A stretch of DNA of 64,000 nt from Candidatus Handelsmanbacteria bacterium (GTDB lineage: Bacteria; Latescibacterota; UBA2968; UBA8231), in contig VGJS01000018.1 of NCBI GenBank assembly GCA_016867395.1, positions 227-64,226 on the forward strand, given 5' to 3'. A program made the position numbers and the translations under genes. How positions within the stretch are numbered: the stretch's first letter is position 1; every line of letters begins with the position of its first letter. Shown here piece by piece: positions 8,965 through 52,232 of the stretch. Below the pieces are notes generated by a model. It was given only the letters and a program-made list of their open reading frames with translations, was not told the origin of the DNA and made no database searches.

Positions 8965-10128
8965 TTGAAACGCGTGAGACTCGCCCTCATCGGCTGCGGC
9001 GGCATCGCCGGGGCCCATGTCCGGGCTCTGGAAGACCTCTGGAATCGCGGGGTGCGCGACCTGGAGGTGGTGGCCACCTGCGACGTGGTCCTCGAACGGG
9101 CCAGGGAGCGGGCTGGGGAACTGACGAAGTTCCAAAAAAAACAGCCCCGCGCCTTTGCCAGCCTCGCCGAGTTGCTGGCCAGCGGCCTCGAAATCGACGC
9201 GGCCGACATCTGCTCCCTTCACTCCGAGCACCACACCCTGGCCCTGCCCTGCCTGCAGGCGGGCCTGCACGTCCATCTCGAAAAACCCCTGGCCATCACC
9301 CTGCGCGCCGGCCAGCGCATCCTGGACGCGGCGGTGGCGGCCCAGCGGGTGCTGGCGGTGGGAGAGAACTACCGCCGCTCCGCCCACGAGCGGGCCACCC
9401 ACTGGGCCATCCATCAGGGGCGCATCGGCCAGCCTCGGCTCTTCTTCTGGCAGGATGTGGGCGAGGGGTTGGGCAAGTGGGGTTGGCGCAACTTCAAGCA
9501 CGCCGCCGGGGGCGGCTGGATGCTGGACGGCGGGGTGCATTTCGCCGACCTCTTTCGCTACCACCTGGGCGGCGAGGCCCGCGAGGTCTATGCCCTGACC
9601 CGGCACTTCGAGCCCTACCGCTACGACAGCCCCAAAGAGCGCCAAGGAGCGTACCGGGTGGACGTGGAGGACGCAGCCCTGGCCCTGGTGCGCTTCGACG
9701 ACGAGGTGGTGGTGCAGTGGACCTGGGCCGGCTCGGCTCCTGGCCAGGGATTCAACAAGCGGGTCCTCTACGGCAGCGAGGGCTGCCTCGACTGGGAGAG
9801 CGGCTGGCACGGGCGAGACGGGGCGCAACTGAGCCGCGACGAGTTGCTGGCTGAGTACCTGAAAAGCCTGGGCAAGGAAGAGGAGGAACAGCTCTTCCCC
9901 GGCGGCACCCGCGACGCCATCGCCATCGAGCTGAAAGACTTCGCCGACGCGGTGCGCCTGGGCCGGGTGCCCGAAGTGGACGGGGAGGGCGGCTTCAAGG
10001 CCCAGGCCATCTGCATGGGGGTCTTTGAGTCGGGCTGGTGCGGCCGGCCCCTCTCCCTGCAGGAGGTGGAGCGCGGCGAGGCCAGCGGCTACCAGGACCC
10101 CCTCGACAAGGCGCTCGGGTTGATCTGA
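8965..10128 (+). CDS. Gfo/Idh/MocA family NAD(P)-dependent oxidoreductase
   Basis: Full ORF with a TTG start (GTG at 8974 is an alternative). VRLALIGCGGIAGAHVRAL Rossmann start and the family-signature EKP motif in HVHLEKPLAITL. Confidence 0.9.
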   Translation: MKRVRLALIGCGGIAGAHVRALEDLWNRGVRDLEVVATCDVVLERARERAGELTKFQKKQPRAFASLAELLASGLEIDAADICSLHSEHHTLALPCLQAGLHVHLEKPLAITLRAGQRILDAAVAAQRVLAVGENYRRSAHERATHWAIHQGRIGQPRLFFWQDVGEGLGKWGWRNFKHAAGGGWMLDGGVHFADLFRYHLGGEAREVYALTRHFEPYRYDSPKERQGAYRVDVEDAALALVRFDDEVVVQWTWAGSAPGQGFNKRVLYGSEGCLDWESGWHGRDGAQLSRDELLAEYLKSLGKEEEEQLFPGGTRDAIAIELKDFADAVRLGRVPEVDGEGGFKAQAICMGVFESGWCGRPLSLQEVERGEASGYQDPLDKALGLI

Positions 10129-10150: not shown

Positions 10151-10193
10151 GCAAAGAGCCGCCTCCCACCTGGGGAAGCGGCTCTTTGCTTTG
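10151..10193 (+). terminator. candidate intrinsic terminator after the Gfo/Idh/MocA gene
   Basis: Perfect 12-bp inverted repeat GCAAAGAGCCGC (10151-10162) / GCGGCTCTTTGC (10178-10189), 15-nt loop, followed by TTTG. Confidence 0.45.
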
Positions 10194-10202: not shown

Positions 10203-10399
10203 GCGCGGCGGGGAGACTGCCCCGAAGGCCTTTCTCGGGGAGTGGCTGGGTTGGGAAGGCCGCGTGGATGTGTGGCGGGGTAGCGGAGCCAGAGTGAGCG
10301 AGGGGACGCAACGCCCCAGCGTATGGGGCGTTGCGGGGGCGGAGGGGATGAGATGGGCGCGCCTTGGGAAAGCCCGGAGTGGGTCGCTCCCCGACGCGC
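10203..10399 (+). repeat. dispersed GC-rich intergenic repeat, copy A (long form with hairpin module)
   Basis: Aligns by eye along its whole length with 48295-48483. Shares the core GTAGCGGAGCCAGAG(T/C)GAGCG ... CGCGCCTTGGGAAAG(C/G)CCGGAGTGGGTCGCTCCCCGACGC with the copies at 16364-16462(-), 52022-52164 and 56444-56589. The 5' end GCGCGGCGGGGAG is the near-perfect inverted complement of the 3' end CTCCCCGACGCGC. Confidence 0.75.
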
Positions 10400-10401: not shown

Positions 10402-11232
10402 TCACACCCGCTTCCAGATCTCCCGCACTAGGTCCTTGAGCTGCTGCGCCTCCTGCCAGCGGTCGGACAGCTCCTTGCCATCGGCCCCCTGCATGGCGTA
10501 GGTGGGCGGCCCCAACTCCACCACAAAGGTCAGGGTGTCGTTCGCCTCAGCCCCTTCCTTGAATTTCTTGAAGCCGTACTCCCACCAACTGGCGTACAAG
10601 TCCAACCAGACCTTGTTGTGGGGAAAGTTGATGGGCACCTGCACCTGCTCGCGCGAGGCCACCCGGCCGTGGAAGGCCCCGCAGCGGGCCAGAATCTGTT
10701 TCATGAAGCGGTCGTTGTCGGCGGACAGCGGCGGGCCGGCGAACTCGCGGCCTACCAGAAAGTGGGACAGATCGCCGCACAGCACCATGTCCGGCACCGC
10801 CTCGATCAGGTCGAGGGTGAAGTACATGTCGGTGGTCATGCGGTCGCGGTGGGTCTCGAAGTAGAGCGGGAAACCTGCCGTCGCCGCCATGTCCATACAG
10901 CGCACGATATAGGGCACCCCGCCGGCCACTGTGCGCGGCATGGGCATGGGTTGGAGGTTGATGTGGGTGGCCCCCCCGTCGCGGGCGGCCTGGATGTCGG
11001 CCTTAAACTCCTCGGGGGTCCAAGGGAAGACGATGTTGCTGCGCTTGAGCTGGTGCTTCTCGACCAGGGGCAACATGGCCTTGAGATGGGCCGGGTCCTC
11101 CATGAGGAACTCCACCCCGTCGAAGCCGGCCTCGGCGATCTTGGCCACCTTCTCCTCCAGGGTCCATTCCTTTGCCCCCCCAAAGGGCAATCCCACCATG
11201 CCCCACAGGGACTGATATACCTGAAGCTTCAT
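10402..11232 (-). CDS. sugar phosphate isomerase/epimerase (xylose isomerase-like TIM barrel) family protein
   Basis: Internal ATG MKLQVYQSLWGMVGLPFGG... of ORF 10402..11376(-), 276 aa. Contains AEAGFDGVEFLMEDP and GFPLYFETHRD, typical of the AP_endonuc_2 family. Confidence 0.8.
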   Translation of the reverse strand: MKLQVYQSLWGMVGLPFGGAKEWTLEEKVAKIAEAGFDGVEFLMEDPAHLKAMLPLVEKHQLKRSNIVFPWTPEEFKADIQAARDGGATHINLQPMPMPRTVAGGVPYIVRCMDMAATAGFPLYFETHRDRMTTDMYFTLDLIEAVPDMVLCGDLSHFLVGREFAGPPLSADNDRFMKQILARCGAFHGRVASREQVQVPINFPHNKVWLDLYASWWEYGFKKFKEGAEANDTLTFVVELGPPTYAMQGADGKELSDRWQEAQQLKDLVREIWKRV

Positions 11233-11404
11233 AACGCGCCTTTCTGTTTGGGTGTGTCGCGGGTGCAGCAGGATAAGAAAAAGCCTCCCGGGCCGCAAAT
11301 GGTCTCGGAAAGCTGAGTCCCGGCTTTCAGAATGCTGAGGTTTCGGCCCCGTCTGACCCCGGCTTGAAAACTCCAAGTCCTTGCCAGCCCTGCTCCCCTC
11401 CTCC

Positions 11405-13334: not shown

Positions 13335-16300
13335 CTAGCGGCGCTGCAACTGCTCGATGGCCCGGGCCAGTTGGTCGCGGTGCGCCTCGATGGGCGCCGG
13401 GTCCCGGGCGAAGCGGGTCAAATCCGCGCTCACGGCAGCGGGCACCTGCAGCAGGGCTTCGTACTGCTGGCGCTCGGCCGGCTTCAGGCCATCGCCCTGC
13501 TCGGTTAGCAGCCGCTCGAGGATGGCGAAGTACTCGTAGTCCTCCACCCCATCGCGCAGCATCTCCCAGCGGATGCTGTCCACCGGCCCCTCCAGCACCG
13601 GCGCCCGGGGCCGGCCACTGGCCGCCGGCTCAGGCGGGTAAAGGAAGCGGCCGTCGCCGTTGCCCCAGGGCAGCATGTTGCCCTTGGCGGTGCTGTACCC
13701 GCTGACCCAGCTCATGGGGTCCAGGTAGGGGTTCTGCGGGTGGGCCAGGTACGCCGCGTCGCTGGTCCAGTAGTTGGTCTGCCAGACCAGCACCCCCTGG
13801 AGCCGGCGCTGCCAGGTCTGCCAGAGCCAGACCCGCAGCTCGGTGGCCGCGTGGTCGATGAAGAGGCCGGCGTACGGGGCCTTGGGCACGGTGCACACGT
13901 ACCACCAGAAGGTGTCGCCCCGTTGCTGCCGCCCGGCCACGGCCAGGGAATCGTACTGGGGGGTGAGCAGGCACCAGACGTCCGGCCCGCCCGCCAGCCC
14001 GGGCTCCACCTGCTCGGTGAGCATACGGCGGAGGCGGGGGGCGTACTCCTTGAGTTTGCCGAAACCCCGCATCACAAAATCGTAGTCCTTGGGCTCGGGC
14101 TCGTCGAACCAGTACACGTACGCCTCGTCCAGCCAGCCCTTCTCCTCCAGGTGGCGCTCCAGTTCGCCCAGGTACTGGCGCAGGCCCTCCCGGTACTGCG
14201 GGGTGTGTTCCCCCAAACCCTTCAGGCTGGGCTCGACCCGGTCGTGGTAGGTGCCCCCGCCCAGGCCCTGCACCGGGAGGCGGAAGGAGTTGAAGCCGAG
14301 GCTGTCGATGGCCCGGCTCATGGCCCGGTCCCAGGCCGCCCAGGAGAAGGAAGGCTTCAGATCGGGCGACCATTTCACCTCCAGGCGGTCGAGGGGGGCC
14401 GGGTCGTAGGGGGAGAGGCGGTGGGCGCTGAAGTTTTGCAGGTACCGCTCCAGCACCGCCCTTTTGTCCTTCTCTTCGACGAGGCCCTGGTAGCGGAACA
14501 CCTCCTGGGGCGAGAAACCAAAGGCCGTGGTGCAGCTCATCCGGCGGGGCAGCTCAAAGCCGTAGACCTCCACCAGCAGGGGCACCTGGGCGCGGAAGCC
14601 TTCTGCCTCCAGGGCGATGGCCCCGGTGTAGAAGCCCGCCGGTGTCCCCGCCGGCACGTGGACCCGCACCCACAAAGGCTGGTTGGCCCGGGCCGGCGCG
14701 TCGATGGGCCGGTCAAAAGGGGGCAGGGGATCGGGCCAGTTCCCCGCGGCCCCGCTGTAGTCGCTGGGCCGGGCCACCGGCACGTACTCCACCCTCAGGA
14801 GCTCGATCTGCCCGGCCGCGATCCGCACCCCGCCCGGCCCCTCCAGGTCCTGGGCCCTGGCCCATAGCCGGCGCAGGGGACGTTTGGGCCGCACCACCAA
14901 CTGGGCAGCCTCGCGCTCGTCCCCGGCGGCGCGGATCACCAGGGCCAGACCCTTGGCCTGGGGCAGGGGCCGGACCTGGCTCACCTTCCAGCCCGAGGAG
15001 GCCCACCACAGGCCCACCTCCTCGGTGGAACCGGGCAACTCCTCGCCGTAGCTGGCGGCATGCAGCAGGGGCAGGTACACCCCGGTGCCGGCGCGGAAAT
15101 CCCCCAGGGAGTACTCGATCCAGAAACTGCCGGCGCCGGGCAACTCGTAACGGGGATGAAGCACCGAGGTCCCCGGCGGCAGTTGCACCTCGCTGGCCTC
15201 GAGGAACACCGCCGCGGCCCCCTCCTGCACCACCCGCACCTGCTGGGTCAGAGAGAGGGTATCGGAGGCGGGATTCTCCACCTCGGCGCTTAGCCTGTTG
15301 TCCCCGCCGGGCAGTTGCGCCCCCAGGCTGGTAAGCCGCATCTGGAAACGCGGGTCGAGCTGCTGGACCACCGCGAACTGGGTGCTGCCCTGCATTCGCA
15401 GAGGCTGGCCCACCAGCGCCGACTTGTAGGTATAGGCGTGGACCTGGAAGGAGCCCGGGTCCGAGTCCATCCTCACCGCCTGTTTGGCCCGGGCCCGCAG
15501 CCGCACCCAGAGCGCGATCGCCGGCTGCAACTCGGCGGGCAGTTCAAAGCTGCGGCTGCCCGCTTCCCCCAGGGCGCCCAGTTCGCGCCACGCGCTCCCG
15601 TCGGCGCTGGCCTCCACCACCAACTCCCCGGCCTGGTAATAGCCGATGGTCACTGCCACCTGGGCCTCGCGCTGCTGCCTTTGGCCCACCTCGTGGCGGT
15701 ACACCACCCAACTGCCGGCGCCAAAGACCCAGCGGTTGGTGTTGAAGTCGCAGCGGTGGGCATAGAGGGGCCGGCTGTGGTTGCGGGAAGGGCTGTGGAA
15801 GGGGGCTGAAAAGGTGTAGCGCAGGCCGTCGATTCCCTCCCCCTCACCCAGCGCCACCCCCGCCCGGCGGGGGTACACCGGCTGGGCCTCGGTCAAGGAC
15901 ACCGCGTCGAAGGCCACCCTCCCCTTGAGGTGCCACTGCCCAAAACGCAGCCAGGCCCGCTCCGCCGCCAGGGAATCGGGGGCCTGGAACACCGAGGTCT
16001 GCTCGCCCCACTCGCTGCCCAGGTCCCCCAGGTCGCGGTTGCAGAACACCGGCCCACTGGTGGGGGTGCCGCCCCCGCCCTCCAGGCCACGGGCCAGGAA
16101 ACGCAGCAGGTACAACCCGCCGGGCCGGAGCGCCAGCGGCGCCGAGCGCCAGAAACTGGTGCTCTCGCCGTTGCCGCCGATCACCAGCGCCCGTTCCCCC
16201 TCGCCGCCTCCCACCCCCCATTCCCCGGTTCCCTCCAGAGCCCACCCCGCCGGCTGCCCCTGCCCGATCTCGAAGGAGGGGTTGGGTACCGCCACCGGCT

Positions 16301-16433
16301 GGGCCCCGGCGCCCGGGGGGATCACACCGAATACCAGCGCCAGCACCCGGAGGCCGGCAGCGAGGAGCGACCCACTCCGGCCTTTCCCAAGGCGCGGACC
16401 TCCTCCCCCGCTCGCTCTGGCTCCGCTACCCAT
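13335..16433 (-). CDS. secreted DUF4091-domain (GH123-like) protein with N-terminal carbohydrate-binding-like module
   Basis: In frame within ORF 13335..17636(-). ATG at 16433 gives MGSGARASGGGGPRLGKGRSGSLLAAGLRVLALVFGVIPPGAGAQP (signal-peptide-like), then NPSFEIGQGQPAGWALEG. The C-terminal half has YVYWFDEPEPKDY, WWYVCTVP and LWQTWQRRLQGVLVWQTNYW, typical of DUF4091. The start is uncertain because it lies inside repeat copy E. Confidence 0.75.
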   Translation of the reverse strand: MGSGARASGGGGPRLGKGRSGSLLAAGLRVLALVFGVIPPGAGAQPVAVPNPSFEIGQGQPAGWALEGTGEWGVGGGEGERALVIGGNGESTSFWRSAPLALRPGGLYLLRFLARGLEGGGGTPTSGPVFCNRDLGDLGSEWGEQTSVFQAPDSLAAERAWLRFGQWHLKGRVAFDAVSLTEAQPVYPRRAGVALGEGEGIDGLRYTFSAPFHSPSRNHSRPLYAHRCDFNTNRWVFGAGSWVVYRHEVGQRQQREAQVAVTIGYYQAGELVVEASADGSAWRELGALGEAGSRSFELPAELQPAIALWVRLRARAKQAVRMDSDPGSFQVHAYTYKSALVGQPLRMQGSTQFAVVQQLDPRFQMRLTSLGAQLPGGDNRLSAEVENPASDTLSLTQQVRVVQEGAAAVFLEASEVQLPPGTSVLHPRYELPGAGSFWIEYSLGDFRAGTGVYLPLLHAASYGEELPGSTEEVGLWWASSGWKVSQVRPLPQAKGLALVIRAAGDEREAAQLVVRPKRPLRRLWARAQDLEGPGGVRIAAGQIELLRVEYVPVARPSDYSGAAGNWPDPLPPFDRPIDAPARANQPLWVRVHVPAGTPAGFYTGAIALEAEGFRAQVPLLVEVYGFELPRRMSCTTAFGFSPQEVFRYQGLVEEKDKRAVLERYLQNFSAHRLSPYDPAPLDRLEVKWSPDLKPSFSWAAWDRAMSRAIDSLGFNSFRLPVQGLGGGTYHDRVEPSLKGLGEHTPQYREGLRQYLGELERHLEEKGWLDEAYVYWFDEPEPKDYDFVMRGFGKLKEYAPRLRRMLTEQVEPGLAGGPDVWCLLTPQYDSLAVAGRQQRGDTFWWYVCTVPKAPYAGLFIDHAATELRVWLWQTWQRRLQGVLVWQTNYWTSDAAYLAHPQNPYLDPMSWVSGYSTAKGNMLPWGNGDGRFLYPPEPAASGRPRAPVLEGPVDSIRWEMLRDGVEDYEYFAILERLLTEQGDGLKPAERQQYEALLQVPAAVSADLTRFARDPAPIEAHRDQLARAIEQLQRR

Positions 16434-16462
16434 CCTCCCCACCCACGTTCTTCCCCGCCGCC
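16364..16462 (-). repeat. dispersed GC-rich intergenic repeat, copy E (short, internally deleted, minus orientation)
   Basis: The reverse complement reads GGCGGCGGGGAAGAACGTGGGTGGGGAGGATGGGTAGCGGAGCCAGAGCGAGCGGGGGAGGAGGTCCGCGCCTTGGGAAAGGCCGGAGTGGGTCGCTCC. The core is near-identical to copies A, B and C. Confidence 0.6.
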
Positions 16463-16501: not shown

Positions 16502-17096
16502 TCAGCCGCACCGCGCGTTGTACTCCTCCACAATATCTCCCACGATCCGCACCCGCTCGATATCCCCGGTGGAAGATATCTCGTCCGATATGCCCAGCAC
16601 CAGCCTGGGGGCGAAGAGTCGGCGCCCCCAGATCCCACACCTCGCGCTGGGCCCGGTCGAAGGCCTCCTGGTCCCATTGCCAGGTGGCGTGCTGCTCGCG
16701 CCAGGTGGCCACCTTCAGTTCGGCCTTACTCTCCACCTCGCGCTTGAGGGTGAGCTGGTGCCAGCTGTTGGGGGTGTGGCGGTGCACCGCCACCTGCTCC
16801 CCGGCCGGGGAGCGGATGGTGGTCCTGGTATCGGTCTCGTTGAGCGATTCGCGCTCTGCCTGCACCCGGGGGTCCTCGCGGCGGCGGAAGCAGGGGTTGT
16901 ACCAGTTGTAGAGCCGGTCCGAACAGCCCAGCAGGCGGTAGATGGCCGGCATCTCGAGGCCGGTGTACTGCGCCGGCAAGGGTTCCCCCGCGAATTGCTT
17001 GTCGGTATACCAGCACAGGATGCGCGGCTGCCAGATGATGCGGCCGCCGCTGCGGCCAAACACCACGTCCTCGTGCAGCTGTGCCCACGCTGTCAT
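16502..17096 (-). pseudogene. remnant of a hypothetical enzyme gene: N-terminal ~155 codons joined out of frame to a ~38-codon C-terminal tail
   Basis: ATG at 17096: MTAWAQLHEDVVFGRSGGRIIWQPRILCWYTDKQFAGEPLPAQYTGLEMPAIYRLLGCSDRLYNWYN...QREVWDLGAPT. Near 16610-16630, protein-like sequence continues only in another frame (LFAPRLVLGISDEISSTGDIERVRIVGDIVEEYNARCG, stop at 16504-16502). The original frame runs on as Arg/Gly-rich junk into the next gene. Confidence 0.4.
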
Positions 17097-17271
17097 CGCC
17101 GCCTCCGCTAGCGCCCCCCAAGGGGCCTGGTTGGGTTTACCCTGTATATTGCGCAAGCGCGGAAAACCCGGCCAGTCCGCCGGCCGCCGGATTGGCCGGG
17201 GATCCTGGTTTTGGAATATATTACCGGTACGGCACTGGGCGCCCCAAAGGGGCCCTCGCGTGGAGGTGTAT

Positions 17272-19907: not shown

Positions 19908-20720
19908 ATGATCTCACCCCCCGATTTCACCCGCACTCTGCTGGGCAAGACCGGGATCCCCGTGTGCCGACTGGGCCTGTCGGCCACCTACCGCCCCGGG
20001 CAAAGGACCGTCCACCAGGCCCTCGACCAGGGCCTCAACTTCTTCTTCGCCTACGGCATCGACGGGCAGATGATCCGCGCCCTGCGCGAGGTCTTCGCCC
20101 GCCGGCGCGAACAGCTGGTGCTGGCCACCGGCGCGTACAACCTGCTCCTGGGCCACCCCGACCTGCGCCGCACCCTGGAGAAACGGCTGCGCCAGTTCTG
20201 CACCGACTATATCGACGTGTTCCTGTTCCTGGGGGTGACCAGGGAGACGCACTTCCCCCCGCGCCTCCGGGAGGAGCTGTACCGCCTGCGCGAGGAAGGC
20301 AAGGTGCGGGCGGTGGGCATGTCCTGCCACGACCGGCGCTTTGCCGGCCGCCTGGCCGCCGAGGGGTCCCTCGACGTGTTGATGATCCGCTACAACGCTG
20401 CGCACCGAGGGGCCGAGCAGGAGATCTTTCCGCACCTTGCGGCCCACAACCCAGGAGTGGTCAGCTACACCGCCACCCGCTGGCGGGCCCTGCTGCGCCG
20501 GCCCAGAGGCTGGGAGGGCCAGGTGCCCACCGCCTCCCAGTGCTACCGCTTCGTCCTCTCCAACCCTCACGTGCACGTCTGCCTGAGCGCCCCCTCCAAC
20601 CCGGCGCAACTGGCCGAGAACCTGGAAGCCCTGCGCCAGGGCCCCCTCTCCGCCGAGGAAATTGAATTCATGCGGCGCTTCGGCGACGCGGTGCACCGGG
20701 AGCAGCGCTGGTTCATGTGA
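19908..20720 (+). CDS. aldo/keto reductase family oxidoreductase
   Basis: Full ORF, 270 aa: LGKTGIPVCRLGLSATY, YIDVFLFLGV, GKVRAVGMSCH, RYNAAHRGAEQEIFP, SNPHVHVCLSAPSNPAQLAENL. Confidence 0.8.
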   Translation: MISPPDFTRTLLGKTGIPVCRLGLSATYRPGQRTVHQALDQGLNFFFAYGIDGQMIRALREVFARRREQLVLATGAYNLLLGHPDLRRTLEKRLRQFCTDYIDVFLFLGVTRETHFPPRLREELYRLREEGKVRAVGMSCHDRRFAGRLAAEGSLDVLMIRYNAAHRGAEQEIFPHLAAHNPGVVSYTATRWRALLRRPRGWEGQVPTASQCYRFVLSNPHVHVCLSAPSNPAQLAENLEALRQGPLSAEEIEFMRRFGDAVHREQRWFM

Positions 20721-20766
20721 GGAGGCGCATACCCGCCGGAACTGGATTGCCGTATATTGGGGTCCG

Positions 20767-23052
20767 ATGCGTATGTGGGCCTTCTTTCTCCTCGCTTCCT
20801 CCTTGCTGATTCCCAGCGCCTGGAGCCTCGAAGTCCGCGGCCAGGTGCGGCTGCGCCTGGACGATCAGCCCGTGCCCTCTGCCCTGGTGCGCTACCTGAA
20901 CGAGGCCAGCGGCGCGGTGTACGAGACCCAGACCGCCGAGGACGGCGCCTATTACCTGGAATTGCCGGAACCCGCCACGGCCGTGGCGGCCCCTCCCCCA
21001 CTCCCGGCCCGCACCTGGCTTGGTTCTGCATACCCCAATCCCTTCAACCCGGCGGTGGTCCTGCCCCTGGACCTGGCGGCCCCGGCCAGGGTCCGGCTGG
21101 AGATCTTCACCTCCCTGGGCCAGCCCCTACGCCTGCTGGTGGACCGGGAACTGCCCGCCGGCACCCACCTGCTGCGCTGGGATGCCCGCGATGGGCAGGG
21201 CCGGGGCGCGGCTGCCGGGGTCTATCTCTTTCTCCTCTCCGCCGGCGAGTACACCGCCCGGGGCAAGCTGACCCTGGCGGACGGGGCCGCGGGGCTGCCG
21301 GTGGAAAACAGCGCCGCGCCCCGGCAGCCCTCCCTCTATACCATCCAAGTGCGCGGCCCCGCCATCCACTCGCTCGATCTTGCCAACGTGGCGCCGCCCG
21401 ACCCCGGCGCGGACATGGTCCTGCTGGTCGACGCGGACCAATCCTCCCAGCGCTTGCCCAGCGGCCAGTGGACCTCGATGGCGGGGATCCCCGGAGGATG
21501 GTTCAGGATGGGCAGCCCCTTCTACCAGGACGAAGCGCCCGAGCGCCAGGTCTACCTGGACCCTTATTACCTGGAACTCCACGAGGTGACCCTGGCCCAG
21601 TACCGCGCCTGTGTGGAGGCGGGCGCCTGCCCGGAGCCGGCCCAGGGGGAGGCCTGCACCTGGAACTCCGACCGGGGGGACAACCATCCGGTCAATTGCG
21701 TGAGCTGGTACGACGCCGAACGTTATTGCCGCTGGGCGGGGATGCGCCTGCCCACCGAGGCCGAGTGGGAAAAGGCCGCCCGCGGGGCCCTGGGCCAGGT
21801 CTATCCCTGGGGAGATGAACCTCCGGGGGGAGCCGGGAACTGCCAGCGGGCGGTGATGATGCAGGCCGGCCTGGGGCTGGGATGCGGGTACGATGGGCCC
21901 GGCCCGGTGGGCACCCGGACGGCAGACGCCAACCCCTACGGCATCCGCGACCTGGCCGGCAATGTCTGGGAATGGACCGCGGACTGGTACGGGCGAGATT
22001 ACTACCAGCACGGCCCGGCGCGCAACCCGCTCAACACCGAGATGGGCCTTCACCGGTCCCTGCGGGGCAACTCCTGGTTTTACGTGGACCCCAACACCGA
22101 TCTGCGCGCCGCCAACCGCTACCGCTTCCGGCCCCTGCGCTGGTCCCCCTACATCGGCATCCGCTGTGCCCGCAGCGCCCTGCCCGGCCCCGCCGAGCCG
22201 CCCCTGGAACCACCCTCCCCCCTCGAACTCCAGGCCCTCGGCCTGGCCAACTGGCAGGAGCGCCACGCCCTGGTCATGGCCGCGGAGGGGGATACCCTTC
22301 TCCGCCCGGCGCGCCCGGATACCCCGATGGTGTTCATCCCCGCAGGTCCCTGCACCCTGGGCGTTGACCGGGGCTCGGGGGACGAAAGGCCGGTGCATGT
22401 GGCGGAACTGAGCGCCTTCTACCTCGACAGGACCGAGGTGACCGTGGCCCAGTACCGCGCCTGCGCGGAGGCAGGCGGCTGCACCCCGCCCCATCACGGC
22501 GCCAGGACCTACCGCCTCGAATACGAGGGCCGCTTCACCAACTGGGACCAGCCGGGCCGCGAGGACCATCCGGTGAACGCCGTGAACTGGGCCCAGGCCG
22601 ACCAGTACTGCCGCTGGGCCGGCAAACGCCTGCCCACCGAGGCGGAGTGGGAGAAGGCCGCCGGCGGCGACGGCCGCCGCTACCCCTGGGGCGACGAAGA
22701 GCCCAGTTGCGAGCGGGCGGTGATGGACGACGGGGGGGATGGCTGCGGCCAGGACAGCACCTGGCCGGTGGGCTCCAAGCCGGAGGGGGCCAGCTCGCAC
22801 GGGGTCATGGATCTGGCCGGCAATGTGTGGGAGTGGGTGGCCGACTGGTACGACCGCGATTATTACCGCCGCGCCCCGCTGCGGGACCCCTTCAACACCG
22901 ACCCAGGCAGCGAAAGTCTGAAGATCCTGCGGGGCGGCTCCCTGGCCGACCAGAATGCCCACCTCCACGCGGTTTCAAATCGCCTGGCCTACGACCCCCA
23001 GCAGGGCTACGACTACACCGTGGGCTTCCGCTGCGCCCGCAGCGCGCCCTGA
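20767..23052 (+). CDS. secreted multidomain protein: CarboxypepD_reg-like N-terminus, internal T9SS-CTD/FlgD-Ig-like domain, two FGE-sulfatase (SUMF1-like) domains
   Basis: ATG at 20767: MRMWAFFLLASSLLIPSAWS is a signal peptide. Residues ~84-172 read GSAYPNPFNPAVVLPL...RLEIFTSLGQPLRLLVD...GVYLFLLSAGEYTARGKLTLAD. Two copies follow of the pattern ...F.MGS...E.P.H.V.L..FYLD..EVT.AQYR.C...HPV..V.W..A..YCRWAG.RLPTEAEWEKAA..., each ending GFRCAR. Confidence 0.85.
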   Translation: MRMWAFFLLASSLLIPSAWSLEVRGQVRLRLDDQPVPSALVRYLNEASGAVYETQTAEDGAYYLELPEPATAVAAPPPLPARTWLGSAYPNPFNPAVVLPLDLAAPARVRLEIFTSLGQPLRLLVDRELPAGTHLLRWDARDGQGRGAAAGVYLFLLSAGEYTARGKLTLADGAAGLPVENSAAPRQPSLYTIQVRGPAIHSLDLANVAPPDPGADMVLLVDADQSSQRLPSGQWTSMAGIPGGWFRMGSPFYQDEAPERQVYLDPYYLELHEVTLAQYRACVEAGACPEPAQGEACTWNSDRGDNHPVNCVSWYDAERYCRWAGMRLPTEAEWEKAARGALGQVYPWGDEPPGGAGNCQRAVMMQAGLGLGCGYDGPGPVGTRTADANPYGIRDLAGNVWEWTADWYGRDYYQHGPARNPLNTEMGLHRSLRGNSWFYVDPNTDLRAANRYRFRPLRWSPYIGIRCARSALPGPAEPPLEPPSPLELQALGLANWQERHALVMAAEGDTLLRPARPDTPMVFIPAGPCTLGVDRGSGDERPVHVAELSAFYLDRTEVTVAQYRACAEAGGCTPPHHGARTYRLEYEGRFTNWDQPGREDHPVNAVNWAQADQYCRWAGKRLPTEAEWEKAAGGDGRRYPWGDEEPSCERAVMDDGGDGCGQDSTWPVGSKPEGASSHGVMDLAGNVWEWVADWYDRDYYRRAPLRDPFNTDPGSESLKILRGGSLADQNAHLHAVSNRLAYDPQQGYDYTVGFRCARSAP

Positions 23053-30292: not shown

Positions 30293-31323
30293 GACTTGTT
30301 CTTCTCCTGGCTCTCTTGGGTAGGTTGCAATTGGCTCTCGGCCGCCCCCGCGCCCGGATGGCGCAGCAGACAGGCCACCTGGTGGCCGCCCCCCAGATCC
30401 GCGAGGGCGGGCACCAGGTGGGTGCAGCGATCCTGGCGCTCTGGGCAGCGGGGGTGGAAGGGGCAACCCGGCGGCACCGCCGCCGGATTCGGCACGTCTC
30501 CCTGCAGGACCTGGCGCTGCCGCCGCGCCCCCGGACCGGGCGAAGGCACCGCCGAGAGCAGGGCCCGGGTGTAGGGATGGGAGGGGGCGGCGTAGAGCCG
30601 GTCGCGCTCGGCCAACTCGACGATGCGCCCCAGGTACATCACCGCCACCCAGTCGGAGATGTGCCGGACCACGCTCAGATCGTGGGCGATGAACATGTAG
30701 GTCAGGCCCAGGTCCCGCTGCAGGTCCTGCAAGAGATTCACGATCTGGGCTTGCACCGAGACGTCGAGGGCCGAGACCGGCTCGTCGGCGACAATGAAAC
30801 GCGGCTCCACCGCCAGGGCCCGGGCGATGCCGACGCGCTGGCGCTGCCCGCCGCTGAACTCGTGCGGGTACCGCCGCGCCGCGCCGGCCGGCAACCCGAC
30901 CAAGTCCAGCAGCCGCCCCACCTGCCTTTCCAGCCCCTCGCCCTGGGCCAGGTGATGGATCTTGAGCCCCTCGCCGATGATGCCGCCCACCGTCAACCTT
31001 GGATTCAAGGAACTGTAGGGGTCCTGAAAAATGATCTGCAATTGCCGCCGCCGCGCCCGCATCTGCTCGGAGGGCAGCGCCAGCAGGTCCACCCCCTCGA
31101 AGAGCACCTGGCCGGCGGTGGCCTCGATCAGGCGCAGGATGAGCCGGCCCAGGGTGGTCTTGCCGCAGCCGCTCTCGCCCACCACCCCCAAGGTCTCGCC
31201 CGGCCGCAGCGCCAGCGACACCCCGTCCACGGCCTTGACGTGGCCGCGCACCCCGCCCCAGATCCCCCGGCGCACCGGGAAGTGTTTCACGAGGCCCTTC
31301 AGTTCCAAAAGCGGCACCTGCAT
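30289..31323 (-). CDS. oligopeptide/dipeptide-type ABC transporter ATP-binding protein (OppF/DppF-like)
   Basis: Full ORF. Walker [10 protein letters not shown], signature FSGGQRQR, Walker B FIVADEP, and a C-terminal Cys-containing oligopeptide-type tail. Confidence 0.9.
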
Positions 31324-31324
31324 C

Positions 31325-32305
31325 TCAGCCCTGCCCCGCCTTCCAGCAGCTCACCACGTGCTGCGGCCCCAGCTCCTCCAGCGGCGGGATCTGCCCCCGG
31401 CAGCGCTCCTCGGCCAAAGGGCAGCGGGGGGCGAAGCGGCAGCCTTCGGGGAAGTGCCGCGCATCGGGCACCATGCCTGGGATGATGGCCAGCCGCTCCT
31501 GCCGCTGGTCCAGGCTCGGGATGGACTGCAAAAGCCCCCGTGTATAGGGATGCAGGGGCCGGGCGAAGATCGCCGCCGGACTGGCGTGTTCGACAATCTG
31601 GCCGGCGTACATCACCGCCACCTCGTCGGCCACCTCGGCCACCACCCCCAGATCGTGGGTGATCAACAGCACCGCCATGCGCAACTCCTCGCGCAGGCGG
31701 GCCAGCAGTTCGAGGATCTGCGCCTGGATGGTCACGTCGAGGGCCGTGGTCGGCTCGTCGGCAATCAGCACCGCCGGGTTGCAGGAGAGGGCCATGGCGA
31801 TCATCACCCGCTGCCGCATGCCGCCGCTGAGCTGGTGGGGGTACTCGTCCACCCGCTGCTCGGGAGCCGGGATTCCCACCCGTTTGAGCATCTCGACGGC
31901 CCGCGCCCGCGCCTCCTCTTTAGAGACCCGCTGGTGGAGCATCACCGCCTCGGCGATCTGGTAGCCACAGGTGAGCACCGGATTGAGGCTGGTCATGGGC
32001 TCCTGAAAGATCATCGCCAGGTCGGCGCCGCGCACCTGGCACATCTCCTCCTCGGGCAGTTGCAAAAGATCGCGCCCTTCCAGCAGCACCTCGCCTTCCT
32101 CGATGCGCCCGGGGGGGATGGGCACCAGGCGCATAATGGAAAGGGCGGTCATGCTCTTGCCGCAGCCGCTTTCGCCCACCAGGCCCAGGGTCCGTCCCCG
32201 CCGTAGCGCAAAGGAGACCCCGTCCACCGCGCGGCCCACCCCGCTGTCAGTGTGGAAGTAGGTCCGCAACCGGCGGACCTGGAGGATGGGCTCGGAATCA
32301 GTCAT
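31325..32305 (-). CDS. oligopeptide/dipeptide-type ABC transporter ATP-binding protein (OppD/DppD-like)
   Basis: Full ORF. Walker [10 protein letters not shown], signature LSGGMRQR, Walker [12 protein letters not shown]. Confidence 0.9.
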
Positions 32306-39558: not shown

Positions 39559-40902
39559 ATGGATCAGCCTCTGCTTGCCGAAGAAGGCAAGGCCATTCGC
39601 GACCCGGTGTGGGGCTATATCCACTTCCCCGCCCCGCTCCTAGCCCTGGTGGACACCGAGGATTTCCAGCGCCTGCGCAACATCACCCAGCTAGGCTACG
39701 TCCACTTGGTTTATCCTGGGGCCAGGCACTCCCGCTTCGAGCACTCCCTGGGGGTGTTCCACCTGGCCAAGCAGTTCCTGGGGCGCCTGCTGCGCTCTGA
39801 TCCCCCCCTGGAATTGGAGGACGAGGACATCCGCGTTTTCCTGGCCGCCACCCTGCTCCACGACGTGGGCCACTACCCTTTCTCCCACACCCTGGAGGAA
39901 TTGCGCTCCTTCTTCGTGGGCCACGAGCGGCGGGCCCGCCAGCTCATCGAGGACCCCAGGGGCAGCATCGCCCCGGTGCTGCGGGACCAGTTGCGGGTGG
40001 ACCCGGTGCGGGTGGCCAACGTCATCGACTACAAGGCCCGGGATCGCCAGATCCCCGCCCGCGACTTTTTGCTGGCCAATATCCTCAGCGGCACCCTCGA
40101 CCCGGACAAGGTCGATTACCTGCTGCGCGACTCCCTCTTCTGCGGGGTGCCTTTTGGCGAGAGCGTCAACCGCGACCGCCTCATCGCCTCCATCAAGTAC
40201 GATCCCCGGAACAAGCGCCTGGCCACCACCAGCAAAGGGGTCTCGGCGGTGGAGGCGCTGGTCTTCACCAACTACCTGATGTACCGCAACGTGTACTGGC
40301 ACCACGCGGTGCGTTCGGCCACCGCAATGTGCAAGCGGGCGGTGCAGGACCTCCTGGTCCATGCCGACTGCCGGCTCCAGATCTCCGACTTCCACCGCAT
40401 CACCGAGGGGGAGCTGATCATGATGCTGCGCCAGGAGCAGGAGCGGCTGGGCTTAGAGGGCTCGGCCCGGCTGCTCCTGGGCACCATCAGCCGCCGCCTG
40501 CACAAGGTGGGCAGTTTCATCTATCCGGGGGAGCGCACGGAAGGACTGATGAACTTCCTCTCCGATCTGTACCAGCACCCCGACAAACGGCGGGCCAAGG
40601 AGATCGAGCTGTGCCGGCACTTCAGCGCCCCGCTGGGGCGCCAATTGCAGGGCCACGAGATCCTCATCGACATCCCCCGCTTTGACAAAAGCCCCGAGGT
40701 GGACCTCAAGGTCTTCTACGGCCGGCAAGTACCCAGCGAAAAACCCGACCCGCTAAGCTTCGACGACCCCGAGGTCTCGCGCCTGCGCGAGTCGATGGTG
40801 CACAACTTCGAGGACCAGGCCAAGATCTTCCGCATCTTCTGCGCCGACGAACCCCCACTGCGCGCCCTGGTCGGCGAGCAGGTGAAACGCCATCTCCATT
40901 GA
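39559..40902 (+). CDS. HD-domain phosphohydrolase (dGTPase/SAMHD1-like)
   Basis: Internal ATG MDQPLLAEEGKAIRDPVWGYIHF... of ORF 39472..40902. Motifs: FQRLRNITQLG, RFEHSLGV, LLHDVGHYPFSH, DKVDYLLRDS. Confidence 0.85.
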   Translation: MDQPLLAEEGKAIRDPVWGYIHFPAPLLALVDTEDFQRLRNITQLGYVHLVYPGARHSRFEHSLGVFHLAKQFLGRLLRSDPPLELEDEDIRVFLAATLLHDVGHYPFSHTLEELRSFFVGHERRARQLIEDPRGSIAPVLRDQLRVDPVRVANVIDYKARDRQIPARDFLLANILSGTLDPDKVDYLLRDSLFCGVPFGESVNRDRLIASIKYDPRNKRLATTSKGVSAVEALVFTNYLMYRNVYWHHAVRSATAMCKRAVQDLLVHADCRLQISDFHRITEGELIMMLRQEQERLGLEGSARLLLGTISRRLHKVGSFIYPGERTEGLMNFLSDLYQHPDKRRAKEIELCRHFSAPLGRQLQGHEILIDIPRFDKSPEVDLKVFYGRQVPSEKPDPLSFDDPEVSRLRESMVHNFEDQAKIFRIFCADEPPLRALVGEQVKRHLH

Positions 40903-40940
40903 GGCGTCTATTTAGCACACCTCGTCCCTGGCAGGCTCCC

Positions 40941-42073
<1,133 letters not shown>

Positions 42074-42074
<1 letters not shown>

Positions 42075-46303: not shown

Positions 46304-47550
46304 ATGCGGTGGTGGCACGAAGGCCCGCTTCAACATGTTCGTGCACTGGGGCCTGTATGCCCAACTGGGCCGCCACGAATGGGTGATGAACCGCGAGCGC
46401 ATCCCCCTGGATGAGTACGAAAAACTCGCCGATACCTGGAAACCAGGCGAGCGCCTGGGCCCGCCTGGCCAAAGAAGCCGGGATGAAATACCTGGTGATG
46501 ATTACCAAACACCACGAGGGCTTCTGCCTGTGGGACACGGCGCAGACCGACTAAAACGCCGCCCGCCGCAGGCCCGGGCGCGACCTGGTGGCCGAGTACG
46601 TCGAGGCCTGCCGCGAGTTCAATCTCAAGGTTGGGTTCTATTACTAGCCCATGAACTGGCATCACCCGGACGGGGCGATGTGCGCCAAGGACGAGGCCGC
46701 CCGCCACTGTTTCCTCGATTTCACCCAGGGCTGTTTGCGCGAACTGTGCAGCAACTACGGCCGGATCGACATTCTCTGGCACGACGTTTCCTGGCCGCTG
46801 TCTTCGCCCGAGTTGTGGGAAAGCGTCGCGATGAGCCAGATAGCCCGCCAGCTGCAGCCCCACCTCATCCTCAACAACCGCGCCCAGCTCGACGAAGATT
46901 TCGGCACCCCCGAGGAACACGTCACCGCTGAGAAGGAGGGCCGCGCCTGGCAGGCGTGTATGACCTTCAACGGTTCCTGGGGGTACATGCCCATTTCGCC
47001 TTACTGGCGGCCGGTGCGCGAAGTAGTGGGCCTGCTCAATGCGGCCACCGCCGACAGCGGCAATCTGTTGTTGAACATCGGACCGGCCCCCGACGGCTCG
47101 GTGCTGCACGAAGTAGTGGAGCACCGAGCCGCGCTGGGCAAGTAGCTAGCCCCCAACTAGGAGGCCATCTACGGCCAGGTGGACCGCACCCAGGGGCGGA
47201 TGGAGTGGCTGCCCACCGGCTCGTGGACCCTCAAGGGCAACACCGCGTACTTATGTTGTACCCGCTGGCCGGGCAAGGCAATGGCCATCGGCGGGCTGAG
47301 GGCAAAGGTGGAGCGCGCCACACTGCTGGCCAGCGGTCAGGTCCTCACCTGCGAGCAGAGCGACAACCGCTTGGTGCTCAAAGGTCTGCCGGCGACCCAA
47401 CCTGACAGCGTCGCCGGCGCCACCCTCATCAAACTTGAATGCAGCGCCCCGCCCAAACAGGTCCTGGGCGTTGAATACGTGGTGCTGGAGTACTTAGTTT
47501 GCCGGGCGCGTCCTTCGCGGCGCACCTGCCCCCTTGCCGAGGAGCCCTGA
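46304..47550 (+). pseudogene. alpha-L-fucosidase (GH29) pseudogene: two frameshifts and four in-frame stops
   Basis: Reading across three frames gives MRWWHE / [41 protein letters not shown] / [40 protein letters not shown]...[15 protein letters not shown]...LLLNIGPAPDGS...ALGK*LAPN*EAIYG... Stops at 46552 (TAA), 46645 (TAG), 47143 (TAG) and 47158 (TAG). It is colinear with the intact paralog at 55205-56428. Confidence 0.8.
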
Positions 47551-48294: not shown

Positions 48295-48483
48295 GCGGCG
48301 GGGAGATAACCCCGAGGCCTTTCCTGGGGAGTGGTTGGGCAGGGAAGTCCGCGTGTCGGGGTCCGGGTAGCTGCGCCATGCGAGCGGGTGGACGCAACGC
48401 CCCTAAGTATGGGGCGTTGCGGGGGTGGAGGGGATGAGATGGGCGCACCTTGGGAAAGGCCGGAGTGGGTCGCTCCCCGACGC
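48295..48483 (+). repeat. dispersed GC-rich intergenic repeat, copy B (long form with hairpin module)
   Basis: Colinear with copy A (10203-10399) over its full length, with scattered substitutions and small indels. Terminal inverted repeat GCGGCGGGGAG / CTCCCCGACGC. Ends 32 nt before the ATG at 48516. Confidence 0.75.
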
Positions 48484-48515: not shown

Positions 48516-49268
48516 ATGGCTACTCCCCAGCAGTGGGCCGAGGAACTGCTGCCCAAGCTGCGCCTGCGGGGTGACGAGTCCCTGCTGGACCTGGGCTGCG
48601 GCGACGGCAAAATCACCGCGCTCCTGGCCGCCCGCCTGCCCCGCGGCCAGGTCCTGTGGGTGGACCTGTCGCCGGCGATGATCGAACTGGCGCAGTCGCG
48701 GTTTCCCCCGGCGGCCTACCCGAACCTTGCCATTGTGCAGATGGACCCGGCGCACCTCACCCTGGAGCCGCGTTTCGACCGGGTCTTCTCCAACGCCACC
48801 CTGCACTGGGTAGCCAACCACCTGGCCGTGCTGCAGGGGGTGCGGGCCTGCCTGCGGCCCGGAGGACGCATCCTCTTCCAGATGGGCGGCCGGGGCAACG
48901 CGGCGGCGGTTTTTTAGGCGCTGGCCGAGGTGGTCGCACGGCCCGCATGGCGCGGCGCTTTCGGCGGTTTCGCGAACCCGTACTCCTTCTACGGCCCCGA
49001 GGAATACCGGCAATGGCTGCCCCAGGCCGGTTTTCACCCGGTGCGCCTCGAACTGATCCCCAAGGACATGCAACACGCGGATGCCTCCGGCCTGCGGGGC
49101 TTGCTGCGCACCACCTGGTTCCCCTACGCTGACCGTCTGCCCGAGGAGCGGCATGCCTCCTACGTCGACGCGGTGATCGCCGCCTATCTGCAACACCATC
49201 CAGTGGACCTCTCCGGCGGCACCCATCTCGCCATGATCCGCCTCGAGGTCGAAGCCCATGCCGGCTGA
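48516..49268 (+). pseudogene. class I SAM-dependent methyltransferase (trans-aconitate methyltransferase-like) with a single in-frame TAG
   Basis: MATPQQWAEELL...LLDLGCGDGKITALLA (motif I)...RILFQMGGRGNAAAVF, TAG at 48915-48917, then in the same frame ALAEVVARPAWRGAFGGFANPYSFYGPEEYRQWLPQAGFHPVRLELIPKDM...IRLEVEAHAG. ORFs 48450..48917 and 48930..49268 share one frame. Confidence 0.7.
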
Positions 49269-50672: not shown

Positions 50673-50751
50673 CACGGTCGCAGGTTCCCGCTAAGATCCA
50701 CAAGGTTCCGCAGCGCGGAGCCGCTGCCCTTCTCTGACCCGAGGTGAATCC

Positions 50752-51258
50752 ATGAAGGTCTCGGTCTTCATCGCCGCCAGCCTCGACGGATACATCGCCC
50801 GGAGCGATGGCGGTCTCGACTGGCTCGAGGACCCGCCGGACTTGGAAGAGGATTACGGGTACAAGGCGTTCATACGCAGCGTTGACACGCTGGCGATGGG
50901 CCGGGGCGCCTTCGAGAAGGTCCTCACCTTTCCCGAGTGGCCCTATGAAGGCAAGCGGGTCATCGTGCTCTCGCGCACCCTGCGCCAGTTGCCGCCCGGA
51001 TTCAAGGAGCGGGCCGAGCTACGCCGCGAGCTGCCCGCGCAGTTGGTGGAACACCTGCGCTGCCAGGGCTGCACCCGGATCTACGTGGACGGGTGCCTGA
51101 CCATTGAGGCCTTTCTCAACGCCGGCCTGATCACCGCACTGACCCTCACCCGCATCCCCCCTTCGGCCGGCTGGGCCGCGACCTGCGCCTGCTGCACCAG
51201 GACACCCCGCGCCTACTTTTCGGGCTTCGTGCAGTCCACCTATACCCTCCCGGCCTGA
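50752..51258 (+). CDS. dihydrofolate-reductase-like (RibD C-terminal domain) family protein; C-terminal region possibly damaged
   Basis: MKVSVFIAASLDGYIARSDGGLDWL...VDTLAMGRGAFEKV...KRVIVLSRT...IYVDG...FLNAGLI is family-typical. Residues 135-153 (PPSAGWAATCACCTRTP) are atypical, whereas an alternative frame reads FGRLGRDLRLLHQDTPR. Confidence 0.65.
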   Translation: MKVSVFIAASLDGYIARSDGGLDWLEDPPDLEEDYGYKAFIRSVDTLAMGRGAFEKVLTFPEWPYEGKRVIVLSRTLRQLPPGFKERAELRRELPAQLVEHLRCQGCTRIYVDGCLTIEAFLNAGLITALTLTRIPPSAGWAATCACCTRTPRAYFSGFVQSTYTLPA

Positions 51259-51993: not shown

Positions 51994-52021
51994 GAGGCAG
52001 GCTGAATCCAGGGTCTGAGGA

Positions 52022-52164
52022 GGGTCGGGGATGCCCTGGAGGTGTCGCCCGTGGAGCGGTTGGGAAGGGCAGACCGCGTGGTGGAATGGCCGGGCAGCGG
52101 AGCGAAGCGAGCGAAAGTGAAGGGTGCGCCTGGGGAGACACCGGAAGGGTATCCCTGACCCGAC
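52022..52164 (+). repeat. dispersed GC-rich intergenic repeat, copy D (diverged)
   Basis: ...GGAGCGGTTGGGAAGGGCAGACCGCGTGGTGGAATGGCCGGGCAGCGGAGCGAAGCGAGCGAAAGTGAAGGGTGCGCCTGGGGAGACACCGGAAGGGTATCCCTGACCCGAC aligns with the cores of copies A, B and C but has many substitutions. Boundaries are approximate. Ends 68 nt before the ATG at 52233. Confidence 0.5.
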
Positions 52165-52232
52165 AACCCGTCGCGGCCCACCTTTGTCCTCACCACCCCT
52201 TTTCCTAATATTGTCCCTCGGAGGACCCTCCC

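Follow-up and report, generated by a model that had tools for sequence, protein, structure and literature searches.

A family of hairpin-forming interspersed repeats, probably of the REPIN/BIME kind, in a Latescibacterota-type lineage of freshwater bacteria

The 64-kb stretch of contig VGJS01000018.1 from Candidatus Handelsmanbacteria bacterium that was analysed here (hereafter the window) carries five copies of a repeat whose basic unit is about 155 nucleotides (nt) long. In its behaviour this repeat resembles a small mobile DNA element and not a gene or a regulator. With a probability of roughly 0.55, its copies are non-autonomous, hairpin-forming interspersed repeats of the REPIN/BIME kind in a Latescibacterota-type lineage. 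Interspersed hairpin repeats such as REP, REPIN, BIME, BOX and ERIC are known mainly from Proteobacteria, Firmicutes and Cyanobacteria, and the mechanism of their spread is debated. A full-text literature search returned no paper on such a repeat in Latescibacteria and, as far as could be found, the family was previously undescribed and is the first of this type in the candidate phylum.

Copies and structure of the repeat unit

A preliminary description of this DNA had proposed five dispersed copies. A repeat search, MAFFT and nhmmer recovered exactly those segments, with no others, and refined their coordinates. Copies A (10205-10397, plus strand, 193 nt) and C (48295-48483, plus strand, 189 nt) are full-length medium forms, and copy E (56444-56589, plus strand, 146 nt) is a short form. 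Copy D (52018-52164, plus strand) is a short form of a divergent subfamily with variant termini, and copy B (16357-16459, minus strand) is 5'-truncated, beginning near model position 50-59. The copies are unevenly spaced, at 10, 16, 48, 52 and 56 kb (4-32 kb apart). A nhmmer profile built from the five matched only these in the window, with E-values from 1e-25 to 1e-40, and an unfiltered nhmmer search with a 46-copy profile found no sixth copy in the 64 kb, the next match having E = 2. Taken together, the nhmmer E-values of the window copies range from 1e-18 to 1e-40, well outside what chance would give. In the repeat search, family D2 links 10205, 48294, 52019 and 56444, family D4 links 10296 and 48382 at 92% identity, and the inverted pairs I1-I3 connect 16356-16427 (copy B) with the remaining copies. 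The five-copy MAFFT alignment had a mean column identity of 64%, with long invariant blocks.

The unit extends from (A)GCGGCGGGGAG to CTCCCCGACGC. Its structure model was derived by aligning 46 distinct short-form copies with MAFFT, without reference to structure, and the counts in this section refer to that alignment unless another set is named. Two arms of about 32 nt each are imperfect inverted repeats that pair in three helices, P1, P2 and P4. P1 joins GCGGCGGGGAG to CTCCCCGACGC and keeps a G·A mismatch in 34 of the 46 copies; P2 joins GACCCC to G-T-GGGTC, with one bulged T and a neighbouring U·G pair; and P4 joins GGCCTTTCCC to GGGAAAGGCC. A 3x3 internal loop, G·A / N·G / A·G, is invariant (45/46 and 43/46 copies). 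A short helix, P5 (GTCC/GGAC), encloses a core of about 50 nt, which is 54% G with a skew of +0.49. Near-invariant blocks of the core are GGGAAG, CGCG, (GT)AGCGGAGC and, after a variable loop of 3-5 nt, GCGAGCG. The motif GTAG was located only within the core (GGGTAGCGGAGC) of one subfamily, and a second subfamily has GAGAG instead. The terminal inverted repeats of the preliminary description are therefore present, but as arms of about 32 nt in three helices and not as 11-nt repeats. The 13-bp terminal stem with one mismatch that it gave for copy A, GCGCGGCGGGGAG against CTCCCCGACGCGC, was confirmed. In copy C, where 30 of the 31 model pairs are formed, the 5' arm (48295-48325, plus strand) holds the 5' strands of P1, P2 and P4, and the 3' arm (48452-48483, plus strand) holds the 3' strands of P4, P2 and P1 as GGGAAAGGCC-GGAGT-GGGTC-G-CTCCCCGACGC. 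Copy E forms 27 of the 31.

The pairing is supported by strong covariation. Standard pairs filled 93.3% of the paired alignment cells, against 84.7% in shuffles and 36-47% when the partners were slid. Both sides had changed at 22 of the 33 pairs (11.7 in shuffles), and 126 compensatory cells were counted where shuffles gave 29.4 ± 4.5, none of 500 reaching that value. Up to four pair types occur at a single position; positions 38/141, for example, are CG in 29 copies, GC in 8, UA in 3 and AU in 1. A mutual-information scan that assumed no structure ranked the identical nested pairs on top. The arms are 92-95% paired across the 46 copies, long-form copies retain 94.8% pairing, and copy D with a few relatives makes up a subfamily whose arms differ in sequence and are still complementary, the arms of copy D having co-varied as GGTGTC/GACACC and GATGCCC/GGGTATCCC. 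The family had been called a repeated structured DNA or RNA element, and this holds; the covariation that was to be looked for is strong.

Other structures fared less well. An internal hairpin had been described as conserved with a different sequence in each copy; in the alignment, the CCCCG..CGGGG hairpin and the local hairpin CGGGG-AGATGA-CCCCG pair in 92% and 88% of cells, with covariation no higher than in shuffles, and the conserved structure is the long-range arm pairing instead. The hairpin CCCGAAG..CTTCGGG, formerly assigned to copy C, actually lies in copy E. Each arm can also fold locally, in a clover-like alternative without covariation. An extra helix AAGG/CCTT beside P4 was rejected as unpaired, its 5' side being free to vary and its 3' side fixed, as judged by eye. 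The canonical G-quadruplex motif in the G-rich core was found in 8 of the 46 copies, against 11.5 in shuffles, and a G-quadruplex was rejected on this count. Folded as DNA, copy C has z = -3.3 and recovers P1, P2, P4 and the hairpin module H1 described below, and the degenerate copy E, at z = -0.34 (its complement, +1.3), has no advantage over shuffles, so that single-sequence folding is a weak guide for this repeat.

Mismatches within the helices comprised 27 G·U and 29 A·C (50 and 35, respectively, in a larger set). Selection specific to RNA was rejected by this wobble test, there being no G·U/A·C asymmetry in the 46 copies. The equal numbers point to neutral decay of inserted copies and not to copy-by-copy selection on an RNA.

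The unit is modular. Lengths fall into three classes, about 155 nt (53 copies), 177-215 nt (19 copies) and more than 215 nt (13 copies), representing forms of about 155, 200 and 235 nt, and the longer forms owe their extra length to self-folding hairpin modules in the core, inserted at its apex or close to it. Module H1 is CGCAACGCCCC-AACGTA-TGGGGCGTTGCG, H1b is a variant of it, and H2 is GCCGCACCCC-ATACGT-TGGGGTGCGGC, with a centre reverse-complementary to that of H1. The modules were considered as an independent repeat family, and this was rejected: 97 of their 100 occurrences lie within elements and in a fixed orientation, which makes them parts of a composite element. In copies A and C, which have a perfect hairpin insert of about 45 nt in common, the module stands just 3' of GCGAGCG. 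The H1 hairpin occupies 10307-10335 of copy A (plus strand, CGCAACGCCCC-AGCGTA-TGGGGCGTTGCG) and 48393-48421 of copy C (plus strand). Three orthologous pairs have a 52-nt H1 at the apex loop, at the GCGGAGC/AGCGAGC junction, in one relative only, and in some copies the core is replaced by modules.

Distribution of the family

The search for further copies that the preliminary description had called for was productive. A degenerate 30-mer taken from the 3' arm was used to scan one GTDB genome per species and matched 20 stretches, 19 of them in three metagenome-assembled genomes (MAGs) of Candidatus Latescibacterota (groundwater, Lake Baikal and SJ679) and one in a contig binned as Gemmatimonas phototrophica. 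A scan of metagenome contigs with a pattern from the central block, both arms being left free, added 91 stretches, almost all from freshwater assemblies. In the sequences fetched from other assemblies, nhmmer gave 151 matches in 100 of 112. After merging and de-duplication, at least 119 distinct elements were counted in 1.02 Mb of Latescibacterota MAG and freshwater metagenome DNA. They include 85 full-length, 13 5'-truncated and 3 3'-truncated copies, a ratio influenced by the selection of loci. The window's own population was seen again in several lake assemblies, including a 178-kb ENA contig. The copies thus inhabit a Latescibacterota-type lineage of uncultured freshwater bacteria; the repeat marks contigs of this type and is a likely source of assembly breaks.

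The contig binned as Gemmatimonas phototrophica (CAMAVQ010000074.1, 8001-16000, locus L005) holds three copies within 8 kb at 66% GC. It has only the repeats in common with the other loci, and either mis-binning or horizontal transfer would explain the presence there of a repeat otherwise confined to Latescibacterota.

At gathering thresholds Rfam had no match in the window, in line with the preliminary description, which recognised no known family, and around copy A it gave noise only (best 20.8 bits against a cutoff of 54). A known RNA family was rejected because both the gathering and the E-value scans were empty. Nothing similar to the repeat was present in IMG/VR, the PLSDB plasmids or the GenBank phages, and a viral, plasmid or phage origin was likewise rejected.

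Genomic context

Gene contexts were assigned with a simple gene caller of our own. In all, 115 of the 119 copies lie outside called genes and only 4 overlap one by more than 40 nt. Copies also differ in length by 1, 2 or 45-90 nt, and a protein-coding repeat was rejected on these two grounds; the family is non-coding, as first described. Of the copies between tandem genes, 48 run in the direction of the genes and 10 against it (co-oriented and anti-oriented, respectively); 42 lie between convergent genes and 5 between divergent ones. The median distance is 23.5 nt past a co-oriented stop codon and 37.5 nt to the following start codon. At empty sites in relatives the stop and start codons overlap (ATGA, TGATG), which shows that the element fills a spacer otherwise near zero.

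The flanking genes have no function in common. Those in the window are unrelated and metabolic by Pfam, namely oxidoreductase, sugar-phosphate isomerase-like, GH123, hydrolase and methyltransferase genes, together with arylamine N-acetyltransferase, GH2, fucosidase and DUF5671 genes. Among 148 element-adjacent proteins, the 25 most frequent Pfam families are all metabolic. A cis-regulator of a regulon, or a riboswitch, was ruled out because of this functional diversity. Genes flanking the window copies carry no transposase domain, in agreement with the preliminary description.

These positions raise the possibility of a structured mRNA element useful to the host. Such an element would be a stem in the 3' untranslated region or between cistrons that protects the message from 3' exonucleases or separates cistrons, its spread being secondary; mRNA-protecting or cistron-separating roles have been proposed for REP/BIME, ERIC and BOX elements. 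The 48 to 10 excess of co-oriented tandem copies, their placement shortly after co-oriented stop codons and the avoidance of divergent promoter regions (5 copies, against 42 between convergent genes) are what it predicts, and covarying helices with a conserved core sequence are the usual signature of a functional RNA. Copies that put the C-rich strand into mRNA are under-represented. A C-rich transcript would plausibly load Rho and cause polarity, and having the G-rich strand in the mRNA would avoid this. Several features do not fit such an element. No U-tract follows the stem, G·U is not preferred over A·C, the Rfam scan of the window was empty, the fold of copy E is no better than that of shuffles, and a separate terminator-like hairpin (10153-10193) precedes copy A. 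The flanking genes, as noted, have no common function, and particular copies are missing from close relatives. Together with the evidence from orientation presented next, this makes a host mRNA element unlikely.

Strand polarity

GC skew was measured at each locus with the elements masked. The G-rich strand of the element lies on the C-rich strand of the locus at 87 loci and on the opposite strand at 9. On the element strand the skew was -0.073 for co-oriented genes and -0.030 for anti-oriented genes, and with the latter it was negative in 43 of 53 loci. When the skew was split, the gene-independent term was -0.052 and the coding-strand term -0.022. With the corrected skew, the G-rich strand lay on the C-rich strand in 80 cases against 8 over all contexts. 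The ratio was 30 to 2 between convergent genes, 40 to 3 between tandem co-oriented genes, 6 to 2 between tandem anti-oriented genes and 4 to 1 between divergent genes.

Since the rule holds 30 to 2 between convergent genes, where transcription gives no direction, these results indicated that a replication-type strand asymmetry, and not transcription, mainly sets the orientation. For the mRNA element discussed above, the convergent copies and the 6 of 8 anti-oriented tandem copies that follow the skew are contrary evidence. In the window, the cumulative GC skew declines steadily over the whole length to -1.54 at the end, despite several switches of gene strand, so that the window lies within one replichore with its plus strand C-rich. 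Four of the five window copies are on the plus strand, consistent with the rule.

A polarity of this kind could also belong to a host DNA site for a nucleoid, topoisomerase or replication-associated protein, the orientation of which is kept relative to the fork. BIMEs, for example, bind IHF and gyrase. The dependence on the gene-independent skew term (80 against 8), the core blocks that are near-invariant across 46 divergent copies and the purine asymmetry of the core (54% G, skew +0.49) agree with this proposal. It would leave unexplained why the helices covary, which has no obvious role at a double-stranded binding site, and it sits poorly with gains and losses between close relatives that go without compensation, with the many truncated and degenerate copies, with the irregular spacing in the window (10, 16, 48, 52 and 56 kb) and with a canonical G-quadruplex motif that is not enriched (8/46 against 11.5). 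A host site of this type is, on balance, quite improbable.

Turnover of copies

Conservation starts abruptly at (A)GCGGCG and stops abruptly after CGACGC. The flanks showed no conserved target motif. In 66 copies whose two ends could be placed, target-site duplications did not rise above the chance level, the lengths of flanking direct repeats being the same as with shuffled partners. One filled/empty pair (L045/L066) has TGA on both sides of the element, because the stop and start codons overlap there. The preliminary description had considered a MITE-like element (miniature inverted-repeat transposable element). In the classical sense this did not hold, and a MITE dependent on a DDE transposase was rejected for lack of a target-site duplication in the 66 copies.

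Two contigs are syntenic with the window over 36-55 kb, L090 at 92-95% identity and L088 at 84-88%. Copy C is missing from both and is accordingly a recent gain. It took the place of about 50 nt, among them some 17 N-terminal codons of the downstream methyltransferase gene, for which a new ATG lies near 48516. Both contigs also hold a copy after the gene ending at 43516, a place at which only some 10 nt are present in the window, and a deletion in the window lineage is the simplest explanation. The orthologous copies of L090 and L088 differ by an H1 module and by three compensated P4 pairs (TTTCCC/GGGAAA against TCTCTC/GAGAGA), which suggests replacement or conversion and not slow change in place. 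L090 also lacks a 1.5-kb segment of two genes (50698-52200), at the 3' edge of which copy D stands, and two more filled/empty pairs were found between relatives. Gene ends are remodelled in the process, with a new methyltransferase N-terminus at copy C and a probable new GH123 start at copy B.

The repeat might be an attC-like recombination site, belonging to a cassette system of the integron type, or a site that some other tyrosine recombinase reads as folded single-stranded DNA. The resemblance covers two stems with an unpaired internal loop between them, a conserved extrahelical base, a terminal structure that varies from 3 to about 90 nt, the lack of a target-site duplication, copies that lie just after open reading frames (ORFs) with strand polarity, and the two-gene segment ending in copy D that a relative lacks. 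The ends, GCGGCG and CGACGC, are without the RYYYAAC/GTTRRRY core sites of such systems. Moreover, the copies are dispersed among housekeeping genes and not arranged in arrays, 42 of them lie between convergent genes, and most polymorphisms concern the repeat alone, without a cassette. No integrase occurs among the 25 commonest Pfam families of the 148 adjacent proteins, in a list that omits single-member families. An integron attC site was rejected on the end sequences, the missing arrays and the lack of an integrase among those 25 families, and the broader attC-like proposal is very improbable.

Mode of spread

From the observed copies, covarying structure, ends, strand polarity, gene positions and turnover we infer how a repeat of the REPIN/BIME kind would spread here. 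Single-stranded DNA of the unit would fold and move at the replication fork; if, as is usual, the leading strand is the G-rich one, the lagging-strand template would expose the C-rich complement of the unit as written. The unit would be recognised by its shape and conserved core, through an enzyme acting in trans that is comparable to the HUH/Y1 transposases of IS200/IS605 and REP sequences. Pairing would be selected at the copying step, when the element multiplies, and inserted copies would afterwards decay neutrally. They would persist where they do least harm, in spacers at the 3' ends of genes and mostly with the G-rich strand in the mRNA.

Copying of a folded single strand is suggested by the sharp ends at the base of the helix, the absence of a target-site duplication, the compensatory pairing, the fork-tied orientation and the turnover. 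The strand polarity, the modular inserts and the gains and losses favour such a REPIN/BIME-like single-strand mechanism over a cut-and-paste MITE or a regulatory RNA. Strong covariation without a wobble preference, no target-site duplication and a polarity of about 10:1 relative to the fork point to selection during folded single-strand copying, and they make single-strand mobilisation a directly testable hypothesis.

Several observations weigh against this explanation. The direction of replication was read from GC skew, which is an assumption. The 48:10 co-orientation in tandem contexts exceeds what the strand rule gives, as the element shares its orientation with no more than 54% of gene bases, so that some constraint at the level of RNA or transcription must also act. 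Clean insertion junctions are missing from all filled/empty pairs (about 50 nt gave way to copy C, and the others are imprecise), and recombination or gene conversion could spread the copies instead of transposition. The core is the most conserved part and the arms less so, the reverse of described REPINs, and GTAG is confined to the core of one subfamily. No transposase or integrase is among the 25 commonest Pfam families of the 148 adjacent proteins, single-member families being unlisted, and a phmmer search of the 1.02 Mb of sampled loci in six frames with E. coli RayT, a single distant query, gave no match at E<=10.

Instead, the G-rich core on a shape-constrained stem might be read by an enzyme other than a RAYT or an integron integrase. 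The repeat would then represent a new class of structure-recognised mobile element, a novel single-strand DNA mobilisation system of Latescibacterota, and through its fork polarity the elements would mark, or take part in, the organisation of replication and transcription. This proposal is rather unlikely.

Flanking genes and other features of the window

Copy A sits between convergent genes, a GFO/IDH/MocA oxidoreductase gene on the left (8965-10128, plus strand) and a xylose-isomerase-like TIM barrel gene on the right (10402-11376, minus strand), both assigned by Pfam. The terminator-like hairpin 10153-10193, AAAGAGCCGCCTCCCACCTGGGGAAGCGGCTCTTTGCTTTG, a stem with a T-rich tail, immediately follows the oxidoreductase gene and stands 10 nt upstream of copy A. 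With this hairpin ahead of it, copy A lies beyond the probable end of the transcript.

Copies A, C, D and E are intergenic, as all five had been thought to be. Copy B is the only one that overlaps a probable gene start. It is lodged between two minus-strand genes, as judged from the translations and the ORF list. The downstream one is a GH123 gene (13335-16433, minus strand; probable ATG at 16433-16431), and the 3' part of copy B overlaps this ATG and the N-terminal signal-peptide region. A signal peptide, LRVLALVFGVIPPGAGA, is clear in the GH123 protein, for which the ATG at 16433, within copy B, is the best start. The gene upstream of copy B (16505-17130, minus strand) shifts frame shortly before its stop near 16505 and looks disrupted. 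The methyltransferase gene after copy C (region 48516-49382) is split into 48516-48917 and 48930-49268, with 3 stops in the continuous frame. The disrupted-looking genes beside copies B and C could reflect real frameshifts or assembly errors.

The segment 50698-52200 comprises genes for a RibD_C-like protein (50752-51258) and an arylamine N-acetyltransferase (51259-51993), followed by copy D. Its place in the window is between a conserved promoter-like site, TTGACA-N17-TAAGAT, and a GH2 gene; L090 (8305-8312 in the comparison) has instead about 1.1 kb of unrelated sequence upstream of this site. Copy E is flanked by an alpha-L-fucosidase gene (55205-56428) and a DUF5671 gene (56615-57658), both assigned by Pfam.

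The window also contains repeats of other kinds. Protein-coding paralogous repeats at 21528-22865 and 41602-41890 (D1, D5, D7 and D19; 71-81% identity) lie in the long ORFs 20662-23052 and 40899-42074 and have the motif ..NVWEW..DWY.., which we take to resemble formylglycine-generating-enzyme/sulfatase-modifying domains. The stretches 46323-46796 and 55277-55743 are paralogous (D6 and D9; 72-74% identity), the second being part of the alpha-L-fucosidase gene, which makes it probable that two fucosidase paralogues, some 9 kb apart, are present in the window. A coding-type tandem pair with a 93-nt period is found at 59918-60077 (D10, 82% identity). Two adjacent paralogous genes about 1 kb apart at 31155-32230 (D8, 81% over 79 nt) are presumably neighbouring ABC-type ATPase genes.

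Relation to known repeats

BOX elements of Streptococcus pneumoniae have the structure boxA-boxB(n)-boxC, with 5' and 3' modules that pair and a variable number of middle modules. Like them, the present repeat is modular and intergenic, has paired end modules and lacks coding capacity. It differs in that there is no sequence similarity, that its host belongs to another phylum with another GC content, and that its middle modules are self-folding hairpins at several positions in the core.

The bacterial MITEs Correia/CREE, ERIC/IRU and RUP are also small, non-autonomous and intergenic, with terminal inverted repeats and many copies; they are strain-variable and often co-transcribed with their neighbours. 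Unlike them, the present repeat makes no target-site duplication and is strongly strand-polar, and its inverted repeats vary yet stay complementary, so that the structure is conserved and not the sequence. A parent insertion sequence that has the ends of this repeat is not known.

In IS200/IS605 and attC a folded single strand is recognised, no target-site duplication is made and the orientation is tied to the fork. The recognition of a folded strand proposed here, the lack of a target-site duplication and the orientation relative to the replication fork are shared with these systems. The separate sub-terminal hairpins of IS200/IS605 and its encoded TnpA and/or TnpB are not present in the repeat, nor are the R/L boxes of attC with GTTRRRY and the cassette arrays next to intI.

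The closest comparison is with REP sequences and their higher-order forms. A described GTAG-tagged REP family was rejected, since the repeat has no GTAG/CGTC tag at the foot of its arm palindromes, which end in GCGGCG and CGACGC. RAYT-associated REPs go with a cognate, single-copy RAYT gene that the repeats flank, and the sampled loci gave no match to the E. coli RayT query. In the CGTC families the tag goes with an 8-9-bp stem starting with AT; here CGTC occurs only on the complement of the 3' arm and without such a stem (PMC3733652). The unit is also longer than a REPIN, 155-240 nt against about 70-110 nt, and its core is conserved while its arms vary, whereas REPINs have conserved arms and a variable spacer.

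In their general organisation the repeat and the REPIN/BIME elements are alike. Both are short, extragenic, non-coding units with two inverted arms that form a long hairpin, or a clover-like alternative when each arm folds by itself. In REPINs compensatory changes are found across the hairpin, as they are here, and a single-strand mode of movement has been proposed for REPINs (PMC3116915). Like the present copies, REPs are found chiefly downstream of coding regions, where the neighbouring ORFs are unidirectional or convergent (PMC3733652). Neither makes a target-site duplication, and both occur in mosaic, modular higher-order forms. Finally, both keep a conserved irregularity in the stem, and in E. 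coli REP such an irregularity of the hairpin is required for RAYT activity (PMC8266576).

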